A stretch of DNA of 63,954 nucleotides, the filler included, from Reclinomonas americana ATCC 50394 (Eukaryota): assembly GCA_048213135.1 (NCBI GenBank). It is 6 parts of 3 records of this genome, joined end to end, with 100 filler letters (N's around TTAATTAATTAA, not from the genome) between each part and the next. Parts side by side here need not be neighbours in the genome. Positions count along the whole stretch, not along the records: positions 16,881 to 26,652 come from PS015119.1; positions 26,753 to 48,163 come from PS015119.1; positions 48,264 to 53,442 come from PS015119.1; positions 53,543 to 61,889 come from PS015119.1; 2 more parts are not named here. The stretch is one strand, 5' to 3'. Below, in pieces: positions 18,200 through 61,889 of the stretch. Position numbers and translations under genes: made by a program. A model generated the notes under the pieces. It saw only the letters and a program-made list of their open reading frames with translations, was not told where the DNA came from and searched no databases. The stretch's first letter is position 1; each line of letters begins with the position of its first letter.

Positions 18200-21100
18200 A
18201 GTTGGACTCTCTCAAGAAGGACCTCATGCCACTGAGCCCCTCCTCCCCCTCATCCTCCTCCTCGTCGTCGTCGTCATCGTCGTCGTCCTCGCCTGCCGAC
18301 TTCATACGCACTGCGGACCACACCACGCTCTCCATCGGTGGGCATGATTTCTGCCACATACGCAACACAGCTGCTTCCTCTGTGCATTGACGCTGCCGCT
18401 GCTGCTGCGCAGGCAACACGCGATTCGAACTGCTGTTTCACCAGTTGCTGAGTGTGCCGCCGGCGGCCGCTGGCGAAACTGCCGCGCTGATGACTGCCTT
18501 TCTGCGCGGTTTGTGCTTCTACGCACCCTGGCTGCATACCGCGGGAGGCTCACTTCTGCTGTCTGCAGAGCACGGAAGTACAGTGATCCAGCTGACTGCC
18601 GATGGTGTGGAGGCACTGGTTCATGCCGTCAGCGTTGCCGTGGAGCAGCACTTTCCACAGGTGACCGGCGATCGCGCACGTGTGTATATGTCGCAGTGTG
18701 TCTCACACACTCTCCGTCGACGTTGTGTAGATGAGCTCCGCAGGATGCATGGCCGATGCGCCGCTGTCGCCGCTGGACGGCTCGCCTCTGCTGTCGCTGC
18801 TCGATCTGGTGCAGGCCGCGTGCTACCAGCCGGCCGAGCATGTGCCCAACAGTAACAAACTCGCGTTGAGTCGTGCCGGCTTGGTGCCGTCGTTGCGCTC
18901 GGTCCTCATGCAGCTCGGCGCTTCCGGCACGGTCGAAGAGCGCTGCTCGGTGTACCGGGCACTCACGAGTGCCACCATGTACGATGGTACGTGTGTGCGT
19001 CGACGGAGGCCACCCTCACGCGGTCGTGTACTCACGATGTTTGCCTTCTTGGACGAGCGCAGAATCGGTCACCGACAACATTGCCGACACGCCGTGCGTG
19101 AAGGTATTGCTTCCCTTTCCTGTCGTCTACGATATCCCTCATGCACCAAGTTAACCAGTGTCCTCACACAGCTCGTGTACGACGATGTTGTGGCTTGGTC
19201 CGACACGGGCGATGTGGCCTCGCTGGCCCTGCCCCTCACCTGCCTCTTTGTCCAGCTTCGCGGAGGTTGATGATGTGCCTTTTTCATTCTCTCTTGTGTG
19301 TTCCCCTCATTTACTTTGTTTGGTGTTGCCGACAGCCAAGTGCGACCGAGTCGCCGTGGGCGAGTGGGGTGCTGCCGAACTGTGTGCGACACTCCTAACC
19401 AAGTTCCACTCGTGTGCGGCCATTGTCACGCTGGCCGCCGGTGTCATGCAGCGCCTGGTGTTGGACCTGCACAACGTGGCTCTCGTGCAGCACGCCAGCG
19501 GTGTGGAGAATCTTCTCAGTGCCTGGCAGACGCATCGACAGGAAGAGGCCGTGGTGAGGCGTGTAACTGCGGCACTGACCAATATTTTCTCGAAGACCAG
19601 TTGCGCACACAGTATCATGTCGCACGCACACTGCAGTCTCACCATCGATGCAGGATCCGTGGCCGAGCCGACACGCACCGAGCTGTGCAATGTGGTCCTT
19701 GGAGTACTGCAGTCGTGCACCGCACAGACATCCTCCGACGTTGTCAACAACGTCTGCTCTCTCATTGGCAATCTGTGCATGGACGGTGCGTGCTTGCTGC
19801 TGGCCGTGGATGCTGTCACCTTTCGCATCTCTGATATGCTTTTTTTACTATTTGCAGGTGACGCATTGTCCATCATGGCTGCCACTGGTGTGGTGCAGGC
19901 AGTGGTGGAAGCCTGTCGACAGCGCATGCACAAGACGAGTGATGTGTTGCGCCTCATCACGACTCTCGGTCACTTGTGCGCCAAAGGTTTCGTCGAGAGC
20001 TCCTCTTTCTTAAACTGGGTGCGATGAGGATGCCGACGTTCATCGCCATCATATTCTCAGAGTCTGTCAAGTTGCTTGCGTACCAGGCCGGCTGTGTGCA
20101 GCTCTTGGCCGACCTGTTGCGTCGTTGCCTGACCGATTGCGACATGTGCCAGCGCGTGGTGTGCGTCCTCGGAAACTTGTCGTATACGAACGGTGCTTGA
20201 CAGTGTCTTGCCTCTGTGTGTGTGAGAGAGAGAGACAAGAAAGATGCAAGCGTCAGCAGTTGTTTGCTCTTCTGTCTCTCTTTCTCTCTTACTCTCGGAA
20301 ACCTGTCGTATACGAACGGTGCTTGACAGTGTCATGCTTATGAGAGAGAGAGGGAGAGAGAGAGATGCAAACGTCAGCATTTGTGTGCTCTTCTGTCTCT
20401 CTTTCTCTCTCACTCTCGGAAACCTGTCGTATACGAACGGTGCTTGCCTCTGTGTGTGTGAGAGAGAGAGACAAGAGAGATGCAAACGTCAGCGCTTGTG
20501 TGCTCTTCTGTCTCTCTTTCTCTCTCACTCTCGGAAACATGTCGTATACGAACGGTGCTTGACAGTGTCTTGCTTATGAGAGAGAGAGACAAGAGAGATG
20601 CAAACGTCAGCACTTGTGTGCTCTTCTGTCTCTCTTTCTCTCTCATTCTTGGAAACCTGTCGTATACGAACGGTGCTTGACAGTGTCTTGCCTCTGTGTG
20701 TGTGAGAGAGAGAGAGAGAGACAAGATATATGCAAGCGTCAGCAGTTGTGTGCTTTTCTGTCTCTCTTTCTCTCATTCTCGGAAACCTGTCGTATACCAA
20801 TGGNNNNNNNNNNNNNNNNNNNNNNNNNNNNNNNNNNNNNNNNNNNNNNNNNNNNNNNNNNNNNNNNNNNNNNNNNNNNNNNNNNNNNNNNNNNNNNNNN
20901 NNNNNNNNNNNNNNNNNNNNNNNNNNNNNNNNNNNNNNNNNNNNNNNNNNNNNNNNNNNNNNNNNNNNNNNNNNNNNNNNNNNNNNNNNNNNNNNNNNNN
21001 NNNNNNNNNNNNNNNNNNNNNNNNNNNNNNNNNNNNNNNNNNNNNNNNNNNNNNNNNNNNNNNNNNNNNNNNNNNNNNNNNNNNNNNNNNNNNNNNNNNN

Positions 21101-23089
21101 NNNNNNNNNNNNNNNNNNNNNNNNNNNNNNNNNNNNNNNNNNNNNNNNNNNNNNNNNNNNNNNNNNNNNNNNNNNNNNNNNNNNNNNNNNNNNNNNNNNN
21201 NNNNNNNNNNNNNNNNNNNNNNNNNNNNNNNNNNNNNNNNNNNNGTAGTAGAGAGAGAGAGAGGAGAGAGAGAGAGAGATGCGTCAGCAATTGTGTGCTC
21301 TTCCGTCTCTCCTTCTCGGAAACTTGTCGTATACGAACAGTGCTTGACAGTGTCTTGCTTATGAGAGAGAGAGATGCGTCAGCATTTGTGTGCTCTTCTG
21401 TCTCTCTCTCTCTCTCATTCCCTCTCCTTCCCTCTCTATCTCGCTGTGTGGGTGTCTCTTGTGACCCTTCACCATGCAGACGAGGTACGACTCGCGATTG
21501 TCACCAGCGGCGCTATGGCCCTCATGGTCGAGGTTCGCAAGCGTACGACAGACTTGTTGAGTGGAAGATTATTGTGCTAAATACACTTGTGTGTCTTCGG
21601 CAGAGTGCCCGCCTGCATGTCGACGACGAGGTGCTGGCGAGCAATACCCTTCGTGCACTCGGCAATCTGGCTCTCGTGGGTCTGTCTTCCTGCCCACTAT
21701 CTCCCTCGAGTGCGTGAGCACCCAACTGACAACGTTTGTGCTTCGCAGAATCACTGGTTCGCGTTTTTGTAGCCCTCGGTGTCGTCACGCTGTGCTGCGA
21801 TCTGCAAGAGCGACACGGAAGCAGCGCACGAGTGTGCGAGTTTTTCGCCCTCATTTGTTGCGTGCTTCGCGCACCCGTTGCTCCATGCCATGCCCGCCTG
21901 TTTCACTCACTGCACGGTTGGTTGCTCGCAGGCACCAATCTGTTTTACACTGGTGTGTTGACCGCCACTGGCGCGACCGTGGTGACGCAGCGACTGACCA
22001 CCATGTGCAGGTCACTACAGTCGAGAGCTGTGCGGAGCACTGGTGGGTCGTCTGTCGTCGGCTCTGGCTCGTCACGAAAATGAGCGATCCATGGTCACCC
22101 GCACGCTGATGAGTCTGGCCAATGTCTGCAACGGAGGGTGCGTCGATGATGACTTCTAAGGCGATCCCGCCAAAAGCTCATCTCTTTAATCGCAGCGACG
22201 GAGTACGCCTGCAAGTGGAGCAAACTGGTGTTTTTGCGTGCATGCAACGACTGGTGGAGTTGCACGCCGGCAGTCATCAGTGCACACGACAGGCGGTGCG
22301 TGATGAAGTGCAGTTGTTGAAATGCATTCGCCCTCACTCCACGAAATATACAACAACGCAGGTCCGCTTCGTGCATGCGTGGGCCAATGATGGTGAGTGA
22401 CGCACAGTACTGTTTGTCGGCAGAGATATACTCACTGAGGTTCATGCAGCTGCCCGTCGCTCTGTCATTGTTCAACGCGGCATCATTCCTCCGCTGCTCA
22501 GCGCCATTCAGCAACACACCGATGAACCGGCTCTGCTGAAGGCAGCACTCACGTTTTTGGTGGCCTTTGCAGACAATGGTTGCGGTGGTGGTTGTTGTGA
22601 ATCAATCAATGTCTGTGTTTCTCATCGCCAGTTCCACCAGAGAGTCGCGCCACGCTGCTGGACGAGCACGGCGCTGTGGATATGTGCCTGTCCGTGGTCG
22701 AGGACACAACAAGAGCCGCCGGTGCATCCGGCCTCACCGTTGCGCCTGCGCTCTTCATGCACACTTTATATGCACAGTTGTCTGACTTGGCTTCGCAGGC
22801 CGAGCAATTGTCGACCCTGGAAAATCGACTGTCGATGGCCGTCAAGTTCCTGCACACGTCGGCCTGCGTCTCTGGTGCGGTCCCCTCTGTCTCACAGTCC
22901 TTGTGCCCTACACTCGCCTCACAATACCGGCAGGTGCCGCCAAATGCCGCATGGTCGACGCCAATGCCGGCGACGTTCTGCACGTGGCCGCCGAGACATG
23001 CACTCGCCCGTGGCCGCACATCGCACAGCAGGCTCACCAACTCGCCGACCTCCTTCACAGGCACCATCACCAGCAGTGAAAAACGATGA
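18200..23089 (+). CDS. Armadillo (ARM)-repeat protein, many exons; start uncertain
   Basis: Spliced ARM-like repeats, e.g. AGCVQLLADLLRRCLTDCDMCQRVVCVLGNLSYTND|EVRLAIVTSGAMALMVE|SARLHVDDEVLASNTLRALGNLAL; stop TGA at 23087-23089. Confidence 0.8.
20168..21420 (+). repeat. Intronic tandem repeat of ~115-130 bp derived from an exon/intron junction
   Basis: Core ctcggaaacctgtcgtatacgaacggtgcttg at ~20168, 20294, 20415, 20530, 20648, 20778 and 21315, with a 441-N gap inside the array. Confidence 0.9.
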
Positions 23090-23395: not shown

Positions 23396-24671
23396 ATGAC
23401 TGATTTGAGTGTCACACAGACAAGCCCACTGTGCGCAGTCGGTGCTGCGTCACTGTCGCGTCTGGAGGGCTCTCTGTCGGTAGCGCCATACACCGGGCGC
23501 TGTTGCGTTCTCTTTCTCACGCACACTCTCTCCCCCTATCTCTCTCTCACTTCCTCACCAGTGGACCAGCGTGTGTTTGGCGACGACACTCTGTGCTGGG
23601 ATTGCCCGAGTGGCGTGCTGACCATGTGCTGGCACGACACCACTGATCACTTGTTGGTGGGCTGTGCGGATGGCAGTGCGCGTGCCTATAGCTTGTCGGC
23701 GGGTGAGGCGACGCAGCCGCAGTCGTTCGACTTGGAAGGCCCGCCGTGCGTCGCCACATTTCGCTGCATCTCCGCCTCCAAAGTGGTGCGTTGGTTTTGG
23801 CAGGAGCCAAGTACGTCGCGACAAGGTGACTGACATTGGTGATACGAACCCCAGGGCGCTGCAGTTCCCGACAAGTGGCCACAGTCGCGGTCGGTGACGC
23901 ACGTAGCCATTCCTCGTTGCGTGCAAATGACAGCGGCCTGCCTGCTTTTTTTCTGTTGCGTGGCTCACTGCGTGGAGTAGGCGACTCGGATACGTTCTCG
24001 GCGGTCGAGAACGAGCGTGTGCATCTGTGGTCGATTGAGAATGCGGAGCGAGCGCTCTCCACGGCCAAGGTGCGTTGCAGGTGTTGTTGTTGCCCGACTG
24101 CGCGGTTGACTGAGCACGCTGCAGGTGAGCAACGAGCCGCTGACATCGCTGTCGTGGAACCCCAACGACAGCCACCTGTTTGCCGTGTCGTCGGTGAGCG
24201 GCCACACCAAGGTTGTCGACACTCGCGACCTCCGCAATCCCGACAACTCTGTCACGTGGAAATGCGGGCACGGCAGCACAAATGGCACGCACGCGGTGTC
24301 GTGGTCGCCACTGATACCGCACTGGATCGCCACGGCGGGCGGTGACGGGTTTGTGCGCGTCTATGACGTGCGAAGCACTTCGGATGCGGTGTTCTCGTTC
24401 CCAGCGCACCAGTCGTTGGCTCTGCATGTTGCGTGGCAGGGAGCCGTGTGGAATTTTCTCGTTGCCTGACGTGTTCGTTGCCGCGCAGGTGGCCTGGTCG
24501 CCGGCCTACTGCGACGTCCTCATCAGCTGCGGAGTGGAAGATGTTGTGCGCGTGTGGAATCTCAATCTGGAGCCGCACTGCGCGTTCTCCAAGGCGGATG
24601 ATCCGCAGATTGTCGACGGTCTGTGCCGTGGGCGTATCGACATGTTTGTTGTTCATCGAGCTCATGTATCA

Positions 24672-24728: not shown

Positions 24729-26470
24729 GTGCTTTGACACGCACCACGCGTGGAATCCCATGTTCCTCACGCAGACGGGCGACGTGCTCAGCTTTCCAGT
24801 GGCCACCGAAGAATTCGATCGAGTCAGCGATCTGATGCTGGAGTTTCGTATCTCACTGTGTGCATTCAAACTCTGTGTTTCTGCCACTGACCGATGCTTG
24901 GCAGGACCTCGGAACTCGGCAAGTCGTACTCGCCATCGCAGCGGCAATTCGTGCAGCTGCTGTACTCGATGCAAGTGCGCAAGGCGTACCGCAAGCTGGA
25001 GGATCTGGTGTTGGAGTGCCAGCAACAGCGCGAGTTGCGTCCTTTTCTGGTTTGCGCGTCTATGTCACCGGGCACTCAATAATCGAGCACTGCAGCTTTG
25101 CCATGGCCATGAAGCTGGTGGACATGGGAGTTCCACTCGACCCGGTGACATGCACGAGCGTTCCCGGCGACGGCAGCGTGGCCACTCCGGCGTTGCCGCC
25201 GTTTCCCACACCGCCACCGGCGGCGCCAGCGGCAACGGATGCTGCTGCTGCGGCAGGGACAGCGCCTTTGCCAGCCGATGGTATGTCGGATGAGCTCCTC
25301 TCTCTCTCTCTCTCTCGCTTCGTCCGAACCATGTCTTGTGTGCCAGCGGCCAGTCGTCCGGTTCACCACAAGGATGCAGTGGCCAGATTCCGTCGCGAGC
25401 TCGACTTGTACTCGCAGCGCCTGCTCAAGACTTTCCCGATCACTCCAGTGCGTTTGAAATACCTTGAACAGCACCTGGGAGAACTCGTGTGTTGACGCAA
25501 CTTGCTCTCTCGCTCTCTCTCCTCGGCAGGATGTGCAAGAGCAACTGCGCAAGGTGCAAGACACGACGGAGAATTTGCGCCTGCTGCGGCTCATCAAGCA
25601 GCGCGACTTTACGGATCCCGCATCCATTGATCGCGAGTATCGCGAGCTTGTGGAGCGCAATCCGCGCTTCCTCGACGTGGACGTGGTGCTGGTGCGTTCG
25701 TGTGTGTATCTGTCTGTGCCCATCTATCATGTGTGCTGACATGCACACGTCTTTCATTATCGTGCAAGACGGTGATTGAGGCCCTGTGCGAAGAGAGCTA
25801 CGACGCTGGCATGGGCGCACTGTCCCGTTGGCTGGAGGTGGTCGAGGATCTGGATCACCGCGACTCATCACAGCGTGTGTGCTCGCCCTTCTTCCAGCAA
25901 GTCGCCGGACCCGCCATCGGTCCACTGCTGTTTGACGCCGCCAACACCGTGTCGTTGCCGGAGGTCAAATGTGAGTGCGCGCACACACGTCACGAGGCAA
26001 CATACCTACCGGCTCGTCGTTCACTCACTTGTCCTCCTCCGCAGACGACAAGGTGACGACGACGGTTCGCGTGCCAAGTTTGGCCTCGAGTGCCGTTTAC
26101 GAGGTGCTGCTGTTGAACGCCGCGTTGCCGGCGTCGGGAACCTCCACTGCCGAGGGCAGTGCCAGCGCGGGGTCGGTGACCACTGTACGCCGCCGGGAGC
26201 GACCGGCTCGGAAAGCAGTTGCGATGCACATTGGCGCTGTTGTGCACAGAAGTCGCGTGTTGTACTCACCCACTCCATTCCGCACAGTCAACGAAACGAC
26301 TGCCGAGGCAGTCGACGGCGCCAACCATTTCCCGCGAACACGTGTCGTCCGTCATGCAATACGGCGGTGGGCCACTCGACGCCAACGGTGTGGTTCGCTT
26401 CATGGAGCGTATTCGGAACCAGTGCGAGACCGACCCGGCGTTCCTGCGCGCCCAGGTCGAGGCCACACGG
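23396..26470 (+). CDS. WD40-repeat protein with a helical C-terminal region; 3' end lost in gap
   Basis: Spliced WD repeats: LTSLSWNPNDSHLFAVSS...KVVD, HAVSWSPLIPHWIATAGGDGFVRVYDVR, AHQSLALH|VAWSPAYCDVLISCGVEDVVRVWNL. Confidence 0.8.
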
Positions 26471-26652: not shown

Positions 26653-26696
26653 NNNNNNNNNNNNNNNNNNNNNNNNNNNNNNNNNNNNNNNNNNNN

Positions 26697-26708
26697 TTAA
26701 TTAATTAA
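26697..26708. other. Artificial scaffold linker
   Basis: N44-TTAATTAATTAA-N44. Confidence 0.95.
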
Positions 26709-26757
26709 NNNNNNNNNNNNNNNNNNNNNNNNNNNNNNNNNNNNNNNNNNNNTGTAG

Positions 26758-27772: not shown

Positions 27773-30716
27773 ATGTCTTCCAAGCGCGTCATGGTGTCTC
27801 AAGAAAAGGTGCTCTCTCTCTCTCTCTTTCTCTCTCGTTCTNNNNNNNNNNNNNNNNNNNNNNNNNNNNNNNNNNNNNNNNNNNNNNNNNNNNNNNNNNN
27901 NNNNNNNNNNNNNNNNNNNNNNNNNNNNNNNNNNNNNNNNNNNNNNNNNNNNNNNNNNNNNNNNNNNNNNNNNNNNNNNNNNNNNNNNNNNNNNNNNNNN
28001 NNNNNNNNNNNNNNNNNNNNNNNNNNNNNNNNNNNNNNNNNNNNNNNNNNNNNNNNNNNNNNNNNNNNNNNNNNNNNNNNNNNNNNNNNNNNNNNNNNNN
28101 NNNNNNNNNNNNNNNNNNNNNNNNNNNNNNNNNNNNNNNNNNNNNNNNNNNNNNNNNNNNNNNNNNNNNNNNNNNNNNNNNNNNNNNNNNNNNNNNNNNN
28201 NNNNNNNNNNNNNNNNNNNNNNNNNNNNNNNNNNNNNNNNNNNNNNNNNNNNNNNNNNNNNNNNNNNNNNNNNNNNNNNNNNNNNNNNNNNNNNNNNNNN
28301 NNNNNNNNNNNNNNNNNNNNNNNNNNNNNNNNNNNNNNNNNNNNNNNNNNNNNNNNNNNNNNNNNNNNNNNNNNNNNNNNNNNNNNNNNNNNNNNNNNNN
28401 NNNNNNNNNNNNNNNNNNNNNNNNNNNNNNNNNNNNNNNNNNNNNNNNNNNNNNNNNNNNNNNNNNNNNNNNNNNNNNNNNNNNNNNNNNNNNNNNNNNN
28501 NNNNNNNNNNNNNNNNNNNNNNNNNNNNNNNNNNNNNNNNNNNNNNNNNNNNNNNNNNNNNNNNNNNNNNNNNNNNNNNNNNNNNNNNNNNNNNNNNNNN
28601 NNNNNNNNNNNNNNNNNNNNNNNNNNNNNNNNNNNNNNNNNNNNNNNNNNNNNNNNNNNNNNNNNNNNNNNNNNNNNNNNNNNNNNNNNNNNNNNNNNNN
28701 NNNNNNNNNNNNNNNNNNNNNNNNNNNNNNNNNNNNNNNNNNNNNNNNNNNNNNNNAGTCACAATGTGCAGTCGACTCACTCACACGCTGTGAAGGCACG
28801 AGCTGCTCTGCTGGCACACCACCCCTTTGCTCTGTGTGGTGCCGACCTCGCCGACTCTGCACACACTCTGTGCGCGGTGATTGACCGCCCAGAGAGTGCC
28901 TCTCGCATCACCAGTGAAGAGGAGCTTGTCGACGCCGTGGTCTCGGCCGGAAGCATGGTCGGTCAAAGTCACGACCCCAATTGAAGCTGCATGTCGTTCC
29001 GATCGTTCGACTGACCGTGTGTAATATTATCGAACATGTGTGTGTCTAGCAACTGCGCGATGCGCTGTCGGTGGTGGATGTGCAGCAGCTGGCGAGCAAG
29101 ATGGGCGTCAAGGTGCCGCCGGTGGTGACCAACCCGCGCGCTCATCAGCGAGTGGTGAAACAGGTGTGTACGGAAGCGGTGTCTTGTTCGGATTTGAGAA
29201 CGAGAGAAACTGACTCTTGTTTTGTTGGTGCAGCTCATGCAGCGGTGGACGGAAGAGGTGGAGGTCGACGACGAGGAGCAGGGTGGCGGGTCGAAGCGCC
29301 GACGCGCCAAGAGCTCCTTCAATGTGTTTGTCAGCGACCAGATGCTGGCCATGGCGAATCCGCAACCGGACGATGTGGAGAATGTGAAGTGCGTGGAGTT
29401 GCCTGTGTGTTATCCATGGTGTTGCTGCTCCTCAATCAGGTGATCTTCTACGTGCAGTGCGTCCGCCCTCAACATGAGGGACAGGATGAAGGAGATCGGT
29501 TTGTATGCATGCATGATGCGTTGTGTGCAGTCAACAGCTGTCCCGTGCTAACTTTTCTGCCAGCGCGTCGCTGGCGCACCGTGACGCTGGAGGAGCGTGC
29601 CGAGTATCGAGATCGAGCAGCGCGTGAGCGTCAACAGCCTTCCTCGTTCTCTTCCTCCAAAAAGGCAAAGAGCGAACCGGAGGCACCAGCCGTAAGCACC
29701 ACCGCGGCTGCTGCGACTGCAGCGGAATCCGCTCCAGCTTTCACTCCCAAGAAACCCAAGACCGCCTACGCCTGTTACACCAGTGCCGAGCGCAGCCGGT
29801 GAGCACCCTACCGACTATTGGCTCGGCATACTTCCTTCCTGCCTCTCTCACTGCATGCTGCACCAGTGTCGTCGCCGAGAATCCACAATTTGTCGGTCAG
29901 CCCAAGGAGATTACTCGTCTCCTATGTTGCGTCGCAACTTGAAGACCACGGTCACCCTTCCCACACAAACTCACCTTCCCCGCTCGCAGCCGAAAAGTGG
30001 GCGACAGCCACTGCCGAAGTGAAGGCCACGTACGAGGCCATGGCCACGGCCGACCGTGAGCGGTACCAACGAGAGCTGACCACGGGAGAAGTTGAAGGTC
30101 TGGCACCCATTGTTGACATCGTGACATTTTCACGCCGCTCACATCGAGAACAGCACCGCGGGGCGGCAAGGCACCGTCAGGAGGGAAACGCGCACCCAAG
30201 AAAGCAGCCGACAATGGCGACAGTGGTGCTGCGCCGGCCGCGGTCGAAGAGGACGGACGCAAGGCACGCTCGGCGTTTGCCATTTTCTCCGCCGCCAAGC
30301 GCATGGAGTTGCGTTGCATCCCAGCACCCACCCCAACAGTGATACACGCCGTTACTGACGAAACTCACAGGAATCCCAACATTCGCCTGACGGAGATTTG
30401 TTGCGTTCCCTCCACCGTCTTCCACCCCCCAGTCTCTCCTCCCCACTGACCATCGCACACAGCGGCACTCTGGCGCGACACATCCGAGGCCAATCGCGCT
30501 CCCTTCCAGGAGGTGGCGGAACGCGAGAAGGCAGCACTGCAGGCCTCCAGTGTGCCGCTGACTGCTCTCAGTGCCACACCCGCGCCACCTCTGCCAACAA
30601 TCGGCGCCGACATGCTGGCGAATCTGCCGCCGCTGCTGTCGACCGACATGGCATCGCTGCCGCCGCTGCTGGCGACCGACATGGCGTTGCTGCCACCTCT
30701 GCCCCTGCTGCCGTGA
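27773..30716 (+). CDS. Protein with three HMG boxes
   Basis: Spliced boxes RRAKSSFNVFV...KEIARRWRTVTLEERAEY; PKKPKTAYACY...EITRLLSEKW...KATYEAMATADRERY; KARSAFAIF...ENPNIRLTEISALWRDTSEANRAPFQEVAEREK. Linkage of the ATG exon at 27773 across the gap is assumed. Confidence 0.8.
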
Positions 30717-30792: not shown

Positions 30793-34992
<4,200 letters not shown>

Positions 34993-35163: not shown

Positions 35164-35217
<54 letters not shown>

Positions 35218-40471: not shown

Positions 40472-41290
40472 CGCCTGAACATAGCACGCCGCTAAGAGTT
40501 AACTCATCGGAGGAGACAACTCCACACACACAAACCTGCGGCGGCTTGCTCGGATCCGTCAGTTCCTCAGTAGACGCCACACCAATGCCCATCATGCGCT
40601 GCTTGACCACGGCACCGACCACGTACGACAAGGCCGCAAACGACACACACGTGATCAGAACACGATTCGGCAGCGCCTCCGCTCCCTGTCGTGCACCACC
40701 GACTCTCGCCTGCGCCGCTACATCCATTGCCACTCCCAGCCGCAACATCTCCTCCTCTTCCACGCGACTCCGATGCAGGAACGTGAGGAAGGACACGAAA
40801 GCAAAGGCCAACACCGAGGTGACGATCCACGAGCTGCTTGCATGCAACAACGATGAAATGAGGACCGCAGCAGTGACGGGAAGCGATCAGTGCACGCAAC
40901 AGAAAGCGTGCCAGCAGTCGCTTGAACATGCTGGGTGGACGGATCTTGATCTTGGTCGGTGGCACCGGTGGAGGCGGAGGCAGCGCCACATAGGTGACTG
41001 CCACTGGCGGTGGCATCACGCCGGGTGTGGGCAGTGCAACGGGAGGCGGTGCACTGACACCCACACCCACAGAGGCCGCCACTGAAGCAGCAGCAGCGTC
41101 GACACCACTGCAGGCGAAAGTGTGAGAGTGAGGAGAGTGTGACCGAACACACACACACACACACGAAACGATGATGGCGACGGTGGTGGCGACGGGGGAG
41201 AGGGAGGCACTGCGGCTGCGGTGCTATTGTTGCGCGCGGGGAGGAGCAGCAGGGAACGCACAGTGGTGGTCTGTGGCGCAGGGTGGTTAC
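40472..41290 (-). CDS. Partial Pro-rich membrane protein of unknown function
   Basis: Exons ...PPVPPTKIKIRPPSMFKRLLARFL|SSWIVTSVLAFAFVSFLTFL...VLITCVSFAALSYVVGAVVK with two hydrophobic helices. Confidence 0.5.
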
Positions 41291-48207: not shown

Positions 48208-48219
48208 TTAATTAATTAA
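48208..48219. other. Artificial scaffold linker
   Basis: N44-TTAATTAATTAA-N44. Confidence 0.95.
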
Positions 48220-48263
48220 NNNNNNNNNNNNNNNNNNNNNNNNNNNNNNNNNNNNNNNNNNNN

Positions 48264-48345: not shown

Positions 48346-48931
48346 CATATCAACGAGATCTTCTCCCATGGAGCTCTTGAGCTCAATCTCCTTCCAAAAG
48401 TCCTTCTCAAAGCTCAGCTTCTTCAGCTCCTTCTTCTCCTCCTCCAAGAACGCCACATCCTTGTCAATCTCCTCCTCCAAGTGCCTAAACAAACACACAC
48501 ACCCACACAAGTCAGTCTCTGTGTGTGAGAAAGAGTGAGAGTGAGAGAGCGCAACTTGGTGTACTGTCCCAGTGTCTTCAGTGCAGAGTCGGCCAAGGCC
48601 TGTCGCGCACGATCGCCCTTTTGTTGGCTCATCATCAGGTCCTGTGTGTGCGTGAGAGAGAGTGTGAGTGTGTGCAAGTCATGACTGTTTTTAGTTGCCT
48701 TCTTGTTGCACTTATCACCTGCTCAAGTAGCGTTGTCAACCGGTAGAACTCTTCTCGTGTGAAGCGCTTGAGCTCACGCGCGCGAGTGGCCAACAAACCG
48801 AGCTGTGAGTGACTGACTGTGTGAGTGACTGTGACACTCATTGTTCGTTCTGTGTGTGCGTGTGTGCTCACCTGCTGCTCCATGTCAGCAAACTCCTCAG
48901 GTGAGAAGATGCTCTCAAAGCCTTGCGCCAT
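48346..48931 (-). CDS. N-terminal exons of an unknown coiled-coil protein, truncated by gap
   Basis: MAQGFESIFSPEEFADMEQ|LGLLATRARELKRFTREEFYRLTTLLEQ|DLMMSQQ...YTK|HLEEEIDKDVAFLEEEKKELKK, with GT-AG introns in frame. Confidence 0.7.
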
Positions 48932-52000: not shown

Positions 52001-53356
52001 TGTGTCGCCGGAATCGTGTCAGTCGTGTGCGCTGTATTCAGGAAAAGACAAGCAAACGCAACGAGTCAAACGTCGTATCGCAGAGCTTGACACTCTCCGC
52101 ACGACCCTCGGCCAGATGCCGATCAATGTCCTTGACGCCGAGGACCGGAACCAGGCCGGGCGCGTTCTGCACCAAGAACTCGGCGGGGAACCACGCCGTG
52201 TTGCCGTACAGATGGAGAATGGGCAGGTGCTGAGCGACAGGATGTGAACATCCAACCTGCACACGGCCAGCACTCTCTCTGCAGGGTGCGCGCTTACCTT
52301 GCGCTGAATGTCCCACACAGTGCGGAAGAACTTCTTGTCGGTCACGTCGCGGAAGACGGTAAAGTAGAACACCACCAGAGAGCACAGGCCCACGTATTCC
52401 TCGCGCACGTTGTTCTCGTTCGGCGCCCCCACTCGAGTGCTCATGAACGCCAGAATGTTGCGCATGGACTCCATGAACTGGTTGCGGAAGGTCTCGTTGG
52501 CACGCACATTGGCCGTGCCCGGCAGATTGTACTCGCGCTCTGTTGTGGCCAGCTAATCGTTCCACCAGCAGCAGCAGCGGCGTGTGAGCAACACACAACA
52601 CACAAATGCATCGCACCAATGCAACACACCTGGAACAGCAGGCCATCCAGCAACTGGCCCTCCATGTGCTGCAGCACGCGATCGAATTTCCTCACATCCT
52701 CCAGGCTCACGCCAAAGCGGGTCGAGTCGGCGCGCACCGTGCGCAACATGCGCTTGTACACGCCAATGCAGCTGCGGAAGTTCTCGTTCTTCGCAATCAG
52801 CGTGTCCATCGTCACGAGGATGCTCAGCAGCTGGCCCAGGTTGACAATCGCGTACTGTAGCATCACACACCACACACAAAGGCACTCAGCACGACGAGCC
52901 AACCNNNNNNNNNNNNNNNNNNNNNNNNNNNNNNGACACAAACAAAGAGCGTGACTGCATCCAAACACAGCAAAGTGTGCGGAATAACAATCACGCGGAG
53001 GTGCGAGGGTGTCATTGCATTCCGATCCGCAATTGACTTTGCTCTCTCTTTCTCTCTCTCTCACTCACTCTCTCACATGCACAGACACACACCTCGTGTG
53101 AAGTTCGTGTCGAGTGCGTCGGCCAGCTTGTTGGCTTGTGCCGTGAATTCTTCCACAAATGTGGTCAGTCGGTCTAGTTGAATATCCTGCGGCAACTCTG
53201 CACATACACAACACACAAACAGACGCACACACACAGAGAGAGAGAAGAGTGAGCGTGAGCGGGTGTGAGTGAGTGTGCGCGACAATTTCCGCCCACACAA
53301 CTTTCCGGGTCGCCACTGAATGCATCAAAAGTGTAGGCATCATCATCGTCATCCAT
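49036..53356 (-). CDS. WASHC4: WASH complex subunit 4 (SWIP/KIAA1033)
   Basis: [101 protein letters not shown]. Confidence 0.95.
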
Positions 53357-53486
53357 GCGACTGGCGGTGGCCGACGGCGCAGCCGACGAGGACGACGCCA
53401 TGAGAAACAATCAAAGTCACACCTCACTCGGACAGTTCCCTCNNNNNNNNNNNNNNNNNNNNNNNNNNNNNNNNNNNNNNNNNNNN

Positions 53487-53498
53487 TTAATTAATTAA
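53487..53498. other. Artificial scaffold linker
   Basis: N44-TTAATTAATTAA-N44. Confidence 0.95.
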
Positions 53499-53542
53499 NN
53501 NNNNNNNNNNNNNNNNNNNNNNNNNNNNNNNNNNNNNNNNNN

Positions 53543-54208: not shown

Positions 54209-55771
54209 ATGTTTGGTGACGCAGAAGTCTCGTCGACCTTGGGATGGATATCCGTCTTTTCATCCGTGGTCTTCTTCGGCTCCTTTGCAGTGCCATCGAA
54301 GATCAAGTCCATGCGAGTTGCGCATCTCTCACTGTCACTCACTTCACTCCATGTGTGTTGCTCACTCGTTGGTGTGTTTGCAGGAGGCGAATGTCGACCC
54401 GTTCATCACGGCCATGTATCAGAACTTGGCGGCGTTCTTGACCAGTTGGTTGGTGCTGACGTATGTCAAGTTTGAGTGGACCAACTGGGGTGCGTGTGTC
54501 TCCCACACTAGTGTGAGTTGCATGCATGCATTGACTTCGTGTGTCAAGGATTGGCTGGTGCAGCGCTGTGGACGCCTGCTGGTGTGCTGGCACTGGCGTC
54601 GGTGCGGCTCATTGGTCTCAGTGTGGCGCAGGGCTTGTGGTGCGTGCGCATGTGTGTTTCTTGTCACGAATGACTGCCTCTCAAGTTCGCCGTGCAGGAG
54701 CGGCATTACGAGTTCTGCGTTTGCCTGTGAGCTTCTCTGGTGTTGTTGTTGACGGGTTTCGTTGCGCAGTTGTGGTGTCGTTCCTGTGGGGCGCGCTGTT
54801 TTTCCGCGATCCGATCAAGAACTTGGCGGGAGCGCTGGGCGGTCTGGCGCTGCTGCTCATTGGCATTGCGGGTATTGCGCTGTGCAAGCCCGAGACGGAG
54901 GAGAGCACGGAGGGTGAGTTGTGTGAGGGAGACGCGCTGGCTTGTTTCGTGCTGTGTTGATGCGTGTCGCAGGCAAGTCGGTCAATGGTGACGGTGCGCG
55001 ATTAGCAGCACGGTGCGTCCTCGCTTCCCTTGGTACGTCTGCGGTTCCATGTCACACTGAACCGTGCAACAGTGATCCGGCGGAGAATCAGGGGCTGCTG
55101 GGACCAGGTGCCGCGGACGACGATGAGTTGCGTACCCCCGCACGCCCACTGCTGGCCGTCAACGACTTGGAGAAGAAGAAGCCGGTGTCGAAGCGCATGC
55201 TCGGCTTTGTGTTTGTCATTATTCTGGGGTGAGCGGCATTCTTGCGTGCGACCCTGCTGTCGATTGTTGCTCACCACGTGCCGTGTGCAGAGTCATGAAT
55301 GGCTCCATGATGGTGCCGGCGCGCTACGATACCAACGTTGCGATCCTCATTCTCTCACTTCCCCACTTCTTCCCGTCTCCCTCCTCACTCCCTCCACAGA
55401 AATCAATATCCTACGTGTGCAGCTTCGCCGTGGGCGTGCTCGCCATGTCGGTGCTGCTGTCACTCGGCTACTACGGCCTGTACAAGCGCGGATTGCCAGA
55501 CAAGAACCATCTGAAAGTCGCCGCGCTGCCTTCGATGCTCACCGGCCTGTTGTGGAACATCGGCAACGTCTTCAGCATCTACGCCTCCATGTCGCCTCTC
55601 GGACTGACCATTGGCTTCCCGCTCACCCAGACCGCGCTGCTGGTCAGCGGCCTGTGGGGCCTGTTCCTGTTCCGCGAGTTGCGAGGTGCGAGGAAGATCA
55701 CACAGTTTTTCCTCTCCGGTGCTATCTTGTGCGCCGGTGCCGTGCTGCTCGGACTCTACGGACACGAGTGA
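54209..55771 (+). CDS. TMEM144: TMEM144-family (DMT-superfamily) transporter
   Basis: SSVVFFGSFAVPSK, GLSVAQGLWSG, VSFLWG, GLLWNIGNVFSIYA...GFPLTQTALLVSGLWG..FRE, assembled across short introns; stop TGA at 55769-55771. Confidence 0.85.
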
Positions 55772-55842: not shown

Positions 55843-58800
55843 CTATCTGTCCCGTCGACTCTGCCGACGAGTTGCGGAATGGGCCGATTGTGGACGCGAT
55901 CGCACTGCGGGGCTCACCAGTCCGGAGCTCGAGACGCTGTTGGTGGCAGTGGTGGCCTTACTGGCTGGTGACGATGGCGCAGGCCGCCGGCGGGTTGGAC
56001 TCACCGACGGCGAGATGGTCCAGTGTGGTCGAAATGCACTCAGCGTGCGCAGCAATCCACGAGACAGCCGATTGCCTGCATTTCCCACGCACCGCAAGAG
56101 TGTGAGGAAAGCAGAAGAGTGCGCTTCGCGCAGTGTGCACTACCACCCCCTCACCGCGATTGATGTCGACGAGATCGGTCTGCCGATTGAAGCGCAGTGC
56201 ATCTGTGGAGACGAGAGAAACATAAGTGGTGCTCAAGTATCCGACAACAGAAACAGGTACTGACCGGTGAGGAACCGCTGGCACTTGTCGCTGAATCCAT
56301 TGTCGCCGACATTGACTGCCCGAAGACTGCACGTTGGACCGGAGTTCACTTCGAGTGCAGCGCAGAGGCCGCGGATGGCACGGTACACGCAGTTGTTGCC
56401 TGCATTGTGTGTGATCAGTGACAAGCGACAGTGTGCATGGCAGTGGTGGTGACAACGACGGAACGACTAATGTCGAGTGTCTGCAACACGGTATTGCTGC
56501 GCAGACCCACTTGCAGTGCATCTTCGGCGTCGTCTGTCAAACCCGTGTCTTCGCATCATGTGAAGGGGGAAGAGCGTAAGCATGGAAAAAAAGATGATCA
56601 GTATGCTCGTGGCTTGCGATCGCAACTCGACAAGCCGAGGTGGAGCAAAGTGCTGGATCGGGGTTTTGATGATGAGAGGGTGCGAAATAATGCCATAGGA
56701 GACGACAATCACAAACGCACCTGTTGACACACAGCGCATACAGGAGCTGAAAGGCGTGTGTGCCCATCTCAGGGTTGTCTGCAAAATGAATGATGCACGT
56801 GAGGAACATGCGATATTCAAGAGGTACAGCTCAGCACGCAGGCCTCGGCCAGACCTTCGAGAACAAGAGATTGCAGCGAGCGGTTGCTACGAAGCAGTTC
56901 GGCCAGCAAGTGACCCGAATGGTGCGCCAGTCGATTATCTGCACTCCGCGAGTGAGCGAGACGAAAAGCACAGTTGCTGCTCCCACCAAGGGCATTCACG
57001 CAACGTGCCAAGTCCAGTTCCCGCAGTGTGGTGTTGTGCTGCAAGCCGTTGCACAGTTCGAGGACTCCGCGATCTTGCACAATGTTGCCACGGAGTGACA
57101 ATCGTCGCAGCGATCGATTCACACGCAGCGCTGTGCCCAGTCGTGCCACTGATGGGTCCACCAACGCAGTCCCTGCATGCGTGGAGAGGCAGTGAGAACG
57201 CGGCTACATGAGGGCGCACAGTGCTGCTGAGCAAAAAAAACGCAACAGTCGAGCACGAGAGCGGCAAGGGCACACTGAGCAGTGCCCAGATGCCGGCACA
57301 ACAGGGTAAAGCCAGCCACTCCCGGCGGTGATCGCGACAGATCGAGCAGTTGCAGTGCAGGTACAGCACAGACTCCACGCAAGAAGGCCTCCGTCTCCTT
57401 CTCAATGTTGCACTCTGCATTTCACCAATCAGACTCAGAACATTCTGTGCTTCAACGAGGAGGAGGAGACGCACGTTGCACACAGAGGCGCACAATGCCA
57501 CCGGCGTTCCCCAACAGCCCTTCGCCGAGGGCGCGCACATCGGCAGCCGTCAGTCGCATCTCTGTGTGATTGCAACATGAGGAATTGCTCACGATCAGTC
57601 GTAATGCAGCAGATCCAGCGGGCCGCAACTGATGAGTTCCAACTCGCGAAGCGTCGGAATGGCTCGAATCATGTCGCTCATGACGGGAATGCCGTATGGT
57701 CCGAGGTCGGTCTCTGCACGGCAGTGTGAATTGATGCATCGACATGAAGAGAATGCGAGTGAAGAACTGCGACGTACCACGCAGACGGATGGCCGCAATG
57801 TTGTGAAACGCATGTGAGAACTCGATAAACCTCTTGCCCGGGAAGAACGGCGGCGCCGACTCCCACACCTCGTTGTCAATGACAACCGTCGCATGTCTGC
57901 CGCGTAGCGAGTCAGGTTGCGCTGCCATAGAAGATCAGGAATGGCGACTCACTCACTCGTACCTGACAAGCAATCGGGAGAACCACGTGGACACCCGCCT
58001 GTGCCAGCGCCATTACATGAACAGAGCGATGAGAGATGAAGCTCGTGCGAGGTACAAAGTAACCACAAACCACAAGTATTGAACATCGTCGGCCGACAAG
58101 CACGACAGCACCAGCGCCCATAGTTCCTTGGTCAGTGTCGGCTGTGTGCGCAGGTCAGCATCGACAGTCACACAATCCAACACAACGGCGATGCGTACCC
58201 GTTCTGGCTCCGATGACATCAAGTCCACACTCTGCATGAGTCCGAGAATGGAGTGAGGTTAACAGAACTCCACACTATCACCACACAATGTGTACACGAG
58301 TCGCACCTGCTCACTGTCGTACTCCGACATGGACGAGGACGATGCCGAATACTGCAAAGAGGAAGACTGTGAGGCCATAGGCGACTACCAGCAGCGCAGC
58401 AATGGGAAACAGCACTCAACAATGGAAGATACACGGAGACCAGTGTCGGCACTGCGCATTCTGGTTGGACTGTCGCCCATCATAAGGTCGGTCATGAACT
58501 GCACGAGACTCGTCGTCAGTCACTTGCCCTCCATCACACAGACAACACAACCCATGCATGCTCACCGCTCGCGGCACCTCTGCCCCACCCGCAATGGAGG
58601 AACTACGCGAACGCATCGAACCCATGACTCGCAAGCCGAGAATCGAGTTGCTGCGCCCGCGCGACAAGGGCGACCCTTCCGGTGACACGGAGCTGCGAGT
58701 GCTGTCGTCGTCTGCCGTGGAGATTTTGGCAGGTGGTGGAGACCGCCGCGGCTCCTCCACGCCAGGTACATGGACGCGCCCCATGACCACGAATGCCGAC

Positions 58801-61301: not shown

Positions 61302-61889
61302 TTGTTTCCGCTCATTGAGCAAATCAAACAACTTGCCGCCGTAAATCTCAAAGAACGACACCCATACTTGCAGCTCGGGGTAGTCGACCAACCGCTCGTA
61401 AATGTCCTGGGCGGCCAGCAGGTACAATCCCACTACATCGTCCTTGCCCAGCATGGTGTACGTCTTGCCGGAGCCGGTCTGGCCGTACGCAAAGCACGTG
61501 GCCTTGCCGCGGTTGAAGACCACGTCAATCAGCGGCTGTGCTGTTCGCATGTACACCTGCGCACAGAATTTCGCGTCAGCAGCTGGAACGGAAGCAGTCT
61601 TGACTGGCACGACTGCACACCTCCTCGTTCGGGCAGTCCTCGTCAAACACCTCGTCAAACTGGAACTCGTGCGTCTCCACGTAGCGAGTCAGATCGACCT
61701 TGATCCTGCATGGTCCCGCATGTGAGCATTGAGGCCATCCCTCCTCTCTCTTTTTCTCTCTCTTCCGTGCGCAACTTGGGCTCGTGCACAATCAAATGCG
61801 ACTGATCCATCACACCCAGCACGTCGGCATCGGCACGGCCAGTCTCCTTGCGGTTCAGCGGACGCTTTCGCACCGCCACGCAAATCTTT
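61302..61889 (-). CDS. Kinesin-13 motor domain, N-terminal half
   Basis: [25 protein letters not shown] (KVD finger), [41 protein letters not shown]. Confidence 0.92.

Follow-up and report, generated by a model that had tools for sequence, protein, structure and literature searches.

A second class of U2-type splice donor in Reclinomonas americana, GTTGCG, which U1 may read in a register shifted by one base

The intron-rich window analyzed here, i.e., the whole stretch of 63,954 nucleotides (64 kb) from Reclinomonas americana, contains two kinds of U2-type GT-AG donors, which differ in the exonic base before the cut, carry intronic preferences that are offset by one base, and share their 3' signals. 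In standard donors, which in our reading depend on the exonic G, a loose preference for G-C-G-T comes after G|GT. In the second kind, W|GTTGCG(T/C) with A or T as W, the G-C-G-T core lies one base deeper, behind an extra T. Our tentative explanation, to which we give slightly less than an even chance, is that the 5' end of U1 pairs with the GTTGCG kind in a register shifted by one base.

Introns were inferred from the sequence of this single stretch by an exon-chain dynamic programme, which took its score from the codons, from the branch site together with a YAG acceptor, and from the length of the intron, and never scored exon bases on the donor side. In a donor-free parse every GT received an equal score; in a trained parse donor scores were learned from intronic positions +3 to +6 only. 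GTTGCG is the commonest donor in the former (20 of 91 predicted introns) and starts 33 of 107 introns in the latter. On both strands together the hexamer occurs 97 times, compared to 55.0 +/- 7.4 in 100 shuffles, none of which reaches 97. The final curated set of 117 predicted donors comprises 34 GTTGCG donors, all within 19600-61775, 2 GTTGTG donors and 81 others; GTTGCG thus starts about 3 in 10 introns, and the hexamer is nearly invariant, with no further variant kept. Junctions were fixed by homology in three genes, using orthologue alignments of WASH complex subunit 7 (WASH7), NSUN5, and TMEM144 (Table 1). Since GTTGCG is the commonest donor when all GTs are scored alike, and since 11 of its donors lie at orthologue-fixed junctions, the class is real and not an artefact of donor scoring. 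The broader suspicion that these sites are not donors at all, but errors of gene models or assembly, could appeal to the inference of introns from sequence and to the correction by hand of programme calls at 19946, 50789, 31983, 54654, 54921, and 37873. It is nevertheless extremely improbable, as the eleven junctions are residue-exact, the class appears without any donor model, and false calls would weaken the association described below rather than produce it. Among the rejected candidates, GTTGCG at 19946 is exonic, being read as Val-Leu-Arg within an open exon of ARM-like sequence, the site at 8873 was dropped from the donor set as well, and the programme's choice of 50789 in WASH7 was replaced by 50822..50827.

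Table 1. Donors of the GTTGCG class and standard donors of the three genes with homology-fixed junctions. The exonic base at -1 stands before the vertical stroke, here written as a slash.
Donor	Gene	Position	Strand	Phase	Evidence and remarks
T/GTTGCG	NSUN5	31668..31673	-	1	~575-nt long intron; orthologue alignment ...ALS/FPSVQRM
G/GTTGCG	NSUN5	31806..31811	-	1	63-nt intron; 21-residue read-through gap vs P0122; trained parse
A/GTTGTG (variant)	NSUN5	31981..31986	-	2	after 22-nt micro-exon; orthologue spacing GAT-SITTRLEDFLQCDP vs P0122
A/GTTGCG	NSUN5	32558..32563	-	2	both parses; tblastn segments abut
T/GTTGCG	NSUN5	33386..33391	-	0	19-residue spacing = P0122
T/GTTGCG	NSUN5	33566..33571	-	1	homology stops at YALVCQTLK
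A/GTTGCG	WASH7	50343..50348	-	0	gap-free GIMNTT/VNLVYQF, 9 orthologues; intron position common to other eukaryotes
A/GTTGCG	WASH7	50598..50603	-	0	gap-free alignment
T/GTTGCG	WASH7	51876..51881	-	0	gap-free alignment
C/GTTGCG	WASH7	52057..52062	-	2	gap-free alignment
A/GTTGTG (variant)	WASH7, N-terminus	53296..53301	-	1	tblastn segments 53347-53303 and 53189-53094, 3-residue spacing; earlier parse
A/GTTGCG	TMEM144	54317..54322	+	0	KSMR/EANVDPF in register with P0141, P0143
C/GTTGCG	TMEM144	55337..55342	+	0	RYDTN/KSISYVCSF, spacing as P0144
A/GTTGCG		19600..19605	+	1	54-nt intron; donor-free and trained parses
G/GTTGCG		22579..22584	+	1	trained parse only
C/GTTGCG		22739..22744	+	0	trained parse only; uncertain acceptor (39 nt or ~62 nt)
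T/GTTGCG		23502..23507	+	1	trained parse
C/GTTGCG		23916..23921	+	1	trained parse; another GTTGCG (23955) within intron
T/GTTGCG		24428..24433	+	0	donor-free and trained parses
A/GTTGCG		25034..25039	+	2	donor-free and trained parses
T/GTTGCG	HMG-box gene	29926..29931	+	1	trained parse
A/GTTGCG		30308..30313	+	2	donor-free and trained parses
T/GTTGCG		30400..30405	+	1	donor-free and trained parses
A/GTTGCG		37676..37681	+	0	both parses
A/GTTGCG		37949..37954	+	1	after 24-nt micro-exon; trained parse; acceptor uncertain
T/GTTGCG		40895..40900	-	2	both parses
T/GTTGCG		41880..41885	-	1	trained parse
T/GTTGCG		42727..42732	-	0	trained parse
T/GTTGCG		42930..42935	-	0	both parses
T/GTTGCG		45122..45127	-	0	both parses
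T/GTTGCG		45374..45379	-	1	both parses
T/GTTGCG		46727..46732	-	1	both parses pick 46732; in-frame alternative GTTGCG 46702 follows G
A/GTTGCG		47082..47087	-	0	both parses
A/GTTGCG		48550..48555	-	2	both parses
A/GTTGCG		57624..57629	-	1	trained parse
A/GTTGCG	kinesin	61770..61775	-	2	both parses; joins ...HEPK to IKVDLTRY ahead of Pfam kinesin match
G/GTGTGT	WASH7	52624..52629	-		orthologue alignment set
G/GTAAGC	WASH7	52292..52297	-		orthologue alignment set
G/GTGCTG	WASH7	51691..51696	-		69-nt in-frame intron; read-through = 23-residue insertion vs P0002, P0006
G/GTGTGT	WASH7	51175..51180	-		orthologue alignment set
G/GTGCGT	WASH7	50822..50827	-		read-through = 23-residue insertion
G/GTGAGT	WASH7	49669..49674	-		orthologue alignment set
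G/GTTCGG	WASH7	49253..49258	-		orthologue alignment set
G/GTTCGT	NSUN5	33465..33470	-		orthologue alignment set
G/GTGAGG	NSUN5	33181..33186	-		orthologue alignment set
G/GTACTT	NSUN5	32719..32724	-		orthologue alignment set
A/GTGCGT	NSUN5	32071..32076	-		sole homology-fixed standard donor without -1 G
G/GTACGC	NSUN5	30936..30941	-		60-nt intron; orthologue alignment set
G/GTGCGT	TMEM144	54490..54495	+		intron ends AAG; NWG/LAGAALWTP vs P0141 YWGLVGAALWTP
G/GTGCGT	TMEM144	54640..54645	+		W-S-G continuity with P0141
G/GTGAGC	TMEM144	55229..55234	+		orthologue alignment set
G/GTGAGT	TMEM144	54914..54919	+		less certain
T/GTGAGC	TMEM144	54727..54732	+		less certain

A preliminary description of this DNA had claimed that GTTGCG donors rarely follow G and had called for a genome-wide contingency test of the -1 base against donor class. 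Within the window the association is present: G precedes 2 of the 34 curated GTTGCG donors (T 15, A 13, C 4) compared to 48 of the 81 others (Fisher 3e-8). Of the two exceptions named earlier, 22579 stands, but 46702 gives way to the in-frame site 46732, which lies 30 bases upstream, follows T, and is preferred by the models; the second curated donor after G is 31811, which is supported by homology. The contrast is found in the donor-free parse (0/20, with A 11, T 8, and C 1, vs. 34/71; Fisher 3.3e-5), in the trained parse (2/33 vs. 38/74; 3e-6), under a stricter filter (1/20 vs. 25/34; 6e-7), and in all three intron phases. At the homology-fixed junctions, G precedes 1/11 GTTGCG donors (T 4, A 4, C 2) vs. 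14/15 others, the remaining one following A; two less certain donors add a G and a T. Compared to the expectation from codon position, G is depleted at -1 of GTTGCG donors (2 seen, 12.1 expected) and A/T is enriched (28 seen, 12.1 expected), the non-G bases being A 13, C 4, and T 15 vs. about 6.0, 9.8, and 6.1. The depletion is significant against the codon-position-matched expectation (P 2e-4 to 6e-4, 31-donor set), but not against the 51 GTTGCG sites that were not called donors, because G precedes only 8/51 of these. As also claimed earlier, GTGCG donors commonly follow G (11/15 vs. 2/34; p 3e-6), including 19786, 24070, 25692, 37852, 54490, and 54640, all of which are in the curated set. 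A strong intronic match by itself therefore does not abolish the need for the -1 G, and its loss is tied to the extra T instead. T+3 donors of other kinds (GTTCGG, GTTCGT, GTTGAG, GTTGAT, GTTTGT, and GTTCCG) are preceded by G.

The intronic preferences of the two classes align at an offset of one base, in keeping with the earlier suggestion that G|GTGCG and |GTTGCG are one motif. GTTGCG donors have G, C, and G at +4 to +6, followed by T (20) or C (11 of 34) at +7, and these positions mirror +3 to +6 of the other donors, which prefer G+3 (2.4x), C+4 (1.4-1.9x), G+5 (2.3-3.5x), and T+6 (1.5-2x). The preference for C+4 holds among standard donors with -1 G (23/48 vs. a background of 0.28, P 0.003). 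That the intron nevertheless starts at GT, as argued before from reading frame, is borne out by homology at 55337 and by both parses at 25034 and 37676. When the exon preferences of the other donors are borrowed with a one-base displacement, they give the best fit to the exon bases of GTTGCG donors from -1 to -4 (logL -190.2, compared to -198.7 for a neutral and -207.2 for an unshifted model); the gain, however, comes from -1 only, with -2 and -3 giving no preference to the shifted model. In line with a shift, A/T, which is enriched at -1 of the GTTGCG class, is enriched at -2 of standard donors (41 seen, 29.1 expected). Both classes share a CTSAY branch motif and a CAG/TAG acceptor, U12-like branch sites were found in neither (0 in both), and the bodies of the introns are unrelated; GTTGCG therefore defines an additional class among the ordinary U2-type donors.

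These observations suggest a shifted U1 register and a U1 sequence with G at position 5. The first G of the intron would take over the G:C pairing of the exonic G in standard donors, U+3 would pair at the usual place of U+2, and G+4, C+5, G+6, and Y+7 would pair at the usual places of +3 to +6, while the catalytic core would still cut at the sole GU. This interpretation, put forward in the preliminary description, is partly supported: the offset and the exon fit agree with it, but a human-type U1 5' end, which may not be that of the host, forms a usable duplex in no register (means for 33 donors: canonical -0.16, shifted -0.33, bulged -0.34 kcal/mol). Pairing no better in the shifted register had been named as grounds for refuting it, and the lack of a real duplex amounts to this unless the U1 of the host differs. 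For a stable shifted duplex, the host U1 would have to have G instead of U at position 5, pairing with the invariant C+5. With this base the most stable duplex is the shifted one (-4.95 to -6.95 vs. -3.54 to -5.57 kcal/mol for the bulged one). The same base occurs in a candidate U1 of Mastigamoeba balamuthi, reported to read ACGUAC (preprint 10.1101/2022.06.08.495308); an ACGUAC-type end yields -4.95 (shifted), -3.54 (bulged), and -0.17 kcal/mol (canonical) on the GTTGCG class, and in model duplexes it gives -4.2 where U or C precedes and -7.3 where A does. No snRNA lies within the 64-kb window, donor-minus-control energies differ little between U1 variants, and the support of standard donors for G at position 5 is modest. 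Further points speak against the shift: the enrichment of T at -1 matches that of A, and pairing with U10 predicts neither this nor the strength of the G depletion, G at -1 yielding -6.6 to -7.1 in model duplexes, which should be tolerated. Moreover, where the preceding base is not G, GTTGCG exceeds GTGCGT by 32 to 4, although with an ACGUAC-type U1 a non-G base plus GUGCGU (about -7.2 kcal/mol) is at least as stable.

The same excess, for which single-U1 energies do not account, favours a serious if unlikely rival, i.e., a dedicated reader: a further U1 variant, or a different factor, complementary to GUUGCG would recognize a fixed word without exon contact, and a separate U1 would serve G|GU. 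The near-invariance of the hexamer and the A/T preference at -1, which fits pairing with neither C9 nor U10 well, point the same way. Two U1 5' ends have been reported from a diplonemid genome (PMC12621601) and from Physarum, the latter as mentioned in a preprint by Roy and Bowser. Under a dedicated reader, however, the one-base offset of G-C-G-T relative to standard donors would be a coincidence, and the 3' signals are alike in both classes.

Pure compensation, in which a strong intronic word can stand in for an exonic G and decays in the presence of G, would do without a special register. Exonic and intronic donor positions are well known to depend on each other, the hexamers of standard donors with -1 G are very degenerate, and among the 33 standard donors that lack -1 G the commonest hexamer is GTGCGT (4). 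We nevertheless consider this account improbable, as it explains neither why GTGCGT retains G (7/11) while GTTGCG does not, nor the low C and high A/T at -1, and gives no reason for a word with T+3 and C+5 to be the strong one. Quite improbable is a bulged register, in which the usual pair of G+1 and C8 would form, a single U of the two would bulge, and GCGY would pair as in standard donors. Such a duplex is stable with G at U1 position 5 (-3.5 to -5.6 kcal/mol) and is the best register after -1 G (-7.1), and bulges at +2/+3 were validated for some human donors (PMC4856993). With C9 free, however, an exonic G should be favoured or neutral rather than depleted, and a bulged copy of GTGCGT should be no less dependent on the -1 G than GTGCGT is. 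In addition, the window's donor set holds no GT[A/C/G]GCG donor without -1 G, the single GTGGCG donor (43998) following G.

The position of the WASH7 intron at 50348 is also interrupted in 13 of 25 examined metagenome loci, there with standard donors, which indicates that the GTTGCG class evolved in place.

Even when introns were predicted with no donor model at all, the word GTTGCG was the commonest donor hexamer (20 of 91 donors, the next classes counting 3–5 each), and it is distinguished from the remaining GT donors of the window by the exon base in front of it. It makes up 33 of 107 donors in a parse with a trained donor score and 34 of 117 (~29%) in the final curated set, which further comprises two GTTGTG donors, each preceded by A, and 81 others. 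The hexamer itself is over-represented in the window (97 sites vs 55.0 ± 7.4 in shuffles). The preliminary description had counted 32 of 34 GTTGCG donors without a preceding G; this count was reproduced with slightly different membership, and the claimed lack of G at −1 (the last exon base) relative to other donors proved stronger than stated, with A and T enriched as well. The contrast between the classes holds in every intron phase.

G at the last exon base (−1) in GTTGCG and other donors, by donor set
Donor set	GTTGCG with −1 G	Others with −1 G	Fisher p
Donor-free parse	0/20	34/71	3.3e-5
Trained parse	2/33	38/74	3e-6
Trained parse, stricter filter	1/20	25/34	6e-7
Homology-fixed junctions	1/11	14/15	2e-5
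Final curated set (117 donors)	2/34	48/81	3e-8

At eleven GTTGCG junctions the alignment with orthologues is free of gaps or in register, and the rest come from exon-chain parses (GT...AG, frame restored) and are predicted introns. At the homology-fixed junctions, i.e., those placed by orthologue alignment in WASH complex subunit 7 (WASH7), NSUN5 and TMEM144, the GTTGCG donors follow T (4), A (4), C (2) or G (1), and the others follow G (14) or A (1), two less certain ones following G and T; pooling the two GTTGTG donors with GTTGCG gives p = 8e-6. Eight further GTTGCG sites that look donor-like by eye were not counted (7927, 21857, 26218, 47335, 56626, 57004, 57246, and 60486), and none of them follows G. 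The GTTGCG at 46702, which follows G, has an in-frame alternative at 46732, and the one at 44351, likewise after G, does not share the frame of the donor that was chosen, 44355.

Against an expectation that takes each donor's codon position into account, the class showed at −1 A 13 times (expected 6.0), C 4 times (9.8), G twice (12.1), and T 15 times (6.1). A and T together were seen 28 times against 12.1 expected (P = 3e-8), and the depletion of G had P = 2e-4 to 6e-4 in a version with 31 donors. Position +7 of the class is T in 20 and C in 11 of 34 donors, and the class motif accordingly reads W|GTTGCG plus T or C (W = A/T). A contrary control comes from the GTTGCG sites that were not called donors: only 8 of 51 follow G, so that, measured against them, the depletion of G by itself lacks significance. 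The genome has two donor grammars, G|GT with a loose core and W|GTTGCGY.

Introns were predicted by an exon-chain dynamic programme that scored codons, a CTSAY-type branch site with a YAG acceptor, and intron length; in-frame stops were forbidden, and the exon bases beside the donor were never scored. In donor-free mode every GT received an equal score, and in trained mode the donor score came from the intronic bases +3 to +6 alone. Codon tables were seeded with Pfam-positive ORFs and then retrained. Tables built from the longest ORFs yielded almost no introns and were abandoned, adding an intron-composition term drew the predictions into TC/GA repeats and that version was dropped, and a local-only donor test, which far too many exonic GT sites passed, was not used for counts. 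Junctions were checked against orthologues with MAFFT and tblastn and by reading the DNA. Donors were corrected by hand from 50789 to 50827, from 31983 to 31986, and from 54654 and 54921 to 54640, 54727, and 54914; introns missed by the programme were added at 51696 (in frame) and, in NSUN5, at 33571, 33470, 33391, 33186, 32724, 31673, and 30941. The site 19946 was dropped as a GTTGCG donor because it is exonic, and so was 8873, whose AAG acceptor is poor and lies in sequence rich in repeats. GTTGCA was rejected as a class variant, since G|GTGCGT at 37852 is a better choice of donor than 37873.

At their 3′ ends, the GTTGCG introns carry the same signals as the others. A CT[CG]A[CT] branch motif is found in 26 of 29 class introns and 48 of 61 others, figures that lean towards the motif, as the parser rewarded it. 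Acceptors are CAG or TAG in both classes (24 CAG and 5 TAG in the 29 class introns), and the median intron length is 63 nt in the class vs 73 nt in the others. Introns of the minor spliceosome (U12-type) resemble the class in having a near-invariant donor word and in not relying on an exonic G. However, a U12-type intron is expected to combine an RTATCCTT donor with a CCTTRAY branch site (TCCTTAAC-like) near the 3′ end, whereas the donor here is GTTGCG, and neither branch motif nor acceptor differs from those of the other introns; none of the introns has a U12-type branch site, and a search of the final 45 nt for CCTT[AG]A[CT] gave 0 of 29 class introns. An introner or mobile intron family was likewise rejected: among 88 intron bodies compared, just three pairs share matches, of 14–17 nt and low complexity, and a search of the class for target-site duplications gave no exon-end/intron-end repeats of 3–5 nt. 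The phase-0 intron of WASH7 after the residues MNTT is also present in 13 of 25 metagenome loci examined (of 80 found), with the donors GTAATT, GTGCGT, GTGAGT, GTAAGT, or GTACGC; GTTGCG occurs at this position in 0 of the 25, and none of the 80 loci belongs to a close relative. As this intron is common to several unrelated eukaryotes, its position is old. The shared 3′ signals, the lack of a U12 branch site, the unrelated bodies, and the old position therefore identify the class as a feature of the way in which this organism's major spliceosome reads donors; it is a property of neither a mobile intron family nor the minor spliceosome.

It had been proposed that, at GTTGCG donors, G+1 takes over the role of the −1 G in pairing with U1. 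In such a shifted register, pairing is displaced by one base and G+1 pairs with U1 C9 instead of C8, its partner in the canonical register. This idea is supported by the arrangement of the intronic bases. Standard donors prefer G at +3 (2.4-fold), C at +4 (1.4–1.9-fold), G at +5 (2.3–3.5-fold), and T at +6 (1.5–2-fold), and positions +4 to +7 of the class (G, C, G, T/C) repeat this core one base further in, behind an extra T. Ordinary GTGCG donors do commonly follow G, as noted in the preliminary description: an exonic G is retained where the standard core is at its best (GTGCG 11/15, GTGCGT 7/11), so its loss goes with the extra T and not with a strong core. Other donors with T at +3 are preceded by G; the homology-fixed G|GTTCGG and G|GTTCGT show that standard donors therefore tolerate T+3 when G occupies both −1 and +5. 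A shifted model, which applies the preferences of standard donors one base upstream, gives the class exon bases −4 to −1 a log-likelihood of −190.2, vs −198.7 for a neutral and −207.2 for an unshifted model. The gain of 8.5 over neutral derives entirely from −1, positions −2 and −3 being uninformative.

The duplex energies do not favor the shifted register when a human-type U1 5′ end is used (the sequence printed in PMC4856993): all registers, including the one with a U at +2/+3 bulged out, lie near zero, and with such a U1 the commonest and best-conserved donor of the genome would be nearly unbound in any register. In a scan of 16 variants of U1 positions 5 and 6, the class was rescued by G at position 5 only, with which the predicted energy of the shifted register is −4.95 to −6.95 kcal/mol, against −0.2 in the canonical one.

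Predicted duplex energies (kcal/mol) by bases at U1 positions 5 and 6; the human-type means are for 33 class donors and, in the canonical register, 74 other donors
U1	Class, canonical	Class, shifted	Class, bulged	Standard donors	Exonic GT controls
U5-U6 (human type)	−0.16	−0.33	−0.34	−3.96	−1.89
G5-U6	−0.2	−4.95	−3.54	−5.23	−2.42
G5-C6	−0.2	−6.95	−5.57	−6.15	−3.24

Even a U1 of the ACGUAC type leaves several features unexplained in such models. A non-G base with GUGCGU is predicted at ~−7.2 kcal/mol, A with GUUGCG in the shifted register at −7.3, and U or C with GUUGCG at −4.2; these duplexes explain neither the excess of GTTGCG over GTGCGT after non-G (32 vs 4) nor the enrichment of T at −1, which equals that of A. 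The model further predicts tolerance of G at −1 (−6.6 shifted, −7.1 bulged) and leaves its depletion unexplained. With G at −1, the best predicted register flips to one with a bulge beside the cut site. According to PMC4856993, a bulge at −1 is stable in melting experiments and unused in cells. Speculatively, G might be depleted because such a register is avoided.

The registers themselves are known from humans. Roca and Krainer (2009; as described in PMC4856993) reported the shifted register for atypical 5′ splice sites in humans: as proposed here, G+1 pairs with U1 C9, later pairs move by one, and the cut stays at GU. The exonic −1 base is not G, as in the class, with A in the model oligo of Table 2 of that source. 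However, all validated noncanonical registers together account for ~1.5% of human donors according to the same text, whereas here one fixed hexamer supplies 34 of 117 predicted donors; moreover, the shift does not stabilize GUUGCG when U1 has the human sequence, and the register proposed here is a prediction from sequence and model duplexes. An altered U1 has precedents in Archamoebae. In the part of the preprint consulted (10.1101/2022.06.08.495308), Entamoeba combines GUUUGU donors with a U1 of ACAAAC, T+3 being a fixed donor base as in GTTGCG, and Mastigamoeba balamuthi combines GUGCGC donors with the U1 candidate ACGUAC. The latter carries exactly the G at position 5 that the class needs, and a U1 of this kind therefore has precedent. 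The preference for G+3 and C+4 in standard donors is shared with these co-evolved systems as well; C at +4 (23/48 standard donors with −1 G, P = 0.003; 9/17 homology-fixed donors) is a departure from GTAAGT towards an Archamoeba-type altered U1. A single consensus is described for each of these two genomes, whereas here two classes with opposite exon requirements coexist; neither GUUGCG nor an effect of the −1 base is mentioned in the same part of the preprint.

Taken together, the best explanation is that class donors are read one base displaced relative to standard donors, which would require a U1 with G at position 5; we favor it tentatively, at close to an even chance. The main rival, which we consider rather unlikely, is that a dedicated second U1 or another factor reads GTTGCG. 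A diplonemid genome with two U1 5′ ends (PMC12621601, as far as its text was available) shows an arrangement that would permit two donor grammars in one genome. The bulged register (Roca et al., 2012; Tan et al., 2016, in the available part of PMC4856993) shares with the class an extra U after GU followed by a normal core, but it leaves U1 C9 free and hence predicts an exonic G to be favorable, opposite to the near-absence of G observed; it is quite improbable. Pure compensation is improbable, too, and both fit less well than the displaced reading. That the class is an artefact is very unlikely.

It is conceivable, with chances somewhat short of even, that this lineage has made a rare human escape route a main mode of 5′ splice-site recognition, with ~30% of introns one base out of register, via a U1 changed at position 5 or a second U1 for GUUGCG. 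If so, W|GTTGCG and G|GTNNNN would be two donor grammars of a single genome, opposite in what they require of the exon. The literature matches listed, as far as their text was available, contain no description of a GTTGCG donor class or of one fixed out-of-register word for ~29% of donors, which does not prove that none exists. U1 register choice and the evolvability of the U1 5′ end are live questions in splicing. Of human donors, a small share is known to use shifted or bulged registers, and very few lineages are known to have an altered U1 5′ end. A genome in which about three in ten introns use one fixed out-of-register word would offer hundreds to thousands of natural test cases, bearing on how the cut site is set by U1 pairing, U1-C, and the handover from U1 to U6. 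The finding yields a sharp prediction for the organism's U1 gene(s); in the window, Rfam detected no snRNA gene at gathering score (0 matches), and at E up to 1 it returned 10 far-below-threshold matches to miRNA/sRNA models in repeats and no snRNA. In practice, GTTGCG introns will be missed or misplaced by gene-finding software that was trained on GTRAGT-type donors and includes a −1 G term.

The window (63,954 bases, ~57% G+C, 24 runs of N) contains densely packed, intron-rich eukaryotic genes from ~18 kb onward. Pfam searches of 150 six-frame ORFs named six genes and no more. The best identities in a large protein database are 55% (WASH7), 38% (NSUN5), and 46% (TMEM144), so neither the organism nor any close relative is represented in that database. 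A protein-atlas search with the SF-assemblin ORF yielded no lineage.

Genes, junctions, and repeat blocks in the window
Feature	Position	Strand	Remark
WASH complex subunit 7	49.0–53.4 kb	−	Pfam
NSUN5-type rRNA methyltransferase	30.8–33.6 kb	−	Pfam
TMEM144	54.2–55.8 kb	+	Pfam
Kinesin	~61.3–61.9 kb	−	Pfam
SF-assemblin	26.8–27.5 kb	+	Pfam
HMG-box protein	~29–30.7 kb	+	Pfam
WASH7 MNTT intron, donor	50343–50348	−	Shared with metagenome loci L004–L010, L013, L014, L017–L020
Donor G|GTTCGG	49253–49258	−	Homology-fixed
Donor G|GTTCGT	33465–33470	−	Homology-fixed
TMEM144 intron	54490–54548	+	Donor G|GTGCGT; ends AAG, not YAG
NSUN5 intron	31098–31673	−	GTTGCG donor; ~575 nt
Micro-exon, 22 nt	31987–32008	−	Between GTGCGT and GTTGTG donors
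Micro-exon, 24 nt	37925–37948	+	Between G|GTGCGT (37852) and GTTGCG (37949) donors
Atypical region	1–18000		Long ORFs, e.g., 5364–6755 (+), 3486–5150 (−)
zf-RVT match	9579–10472		Weak, E = 8e-4
Tandem array	20160–21420	+	Units of ~120–130 bases
Second repeat block	33800–35300	both	Upstream of NSUN5

Some features merit separate mention. The AAG acceptor of the TMEM144 intron is the sole one that puts NWG|LAGAALWTP in register with orthologues. The long NSUN5 intron is rich in TC/TG repeats, the other introns of this gene measuring 54–80 nt, and the 22-nt micro-exon was placed by NSUN5 homology. The first 18,000 bases are unlike the rest of the window: their long ORFs have no Pfam match, G-over-C skew is strong in the first 6 kb, and the region is possibly retroelement or repeat-derived sequence. 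A gap of unusual build (12 bases flanked on each side by 44 N) recurs five times, at 16781–16880, 26653–26752, 48164–48263, 53443–53542, and 61890–61989, and probably arose in assembly or masking. The tandem array spans a gap of 441 N inside or after an ARM-like gene; its units are GA/TC-rich, contain one short conserved stretch each, and give weak chance matches to plant miRNA models. The second block consists of long GA/TC- and GT-rich repeated units, in which the gene finder gave spurious introns.
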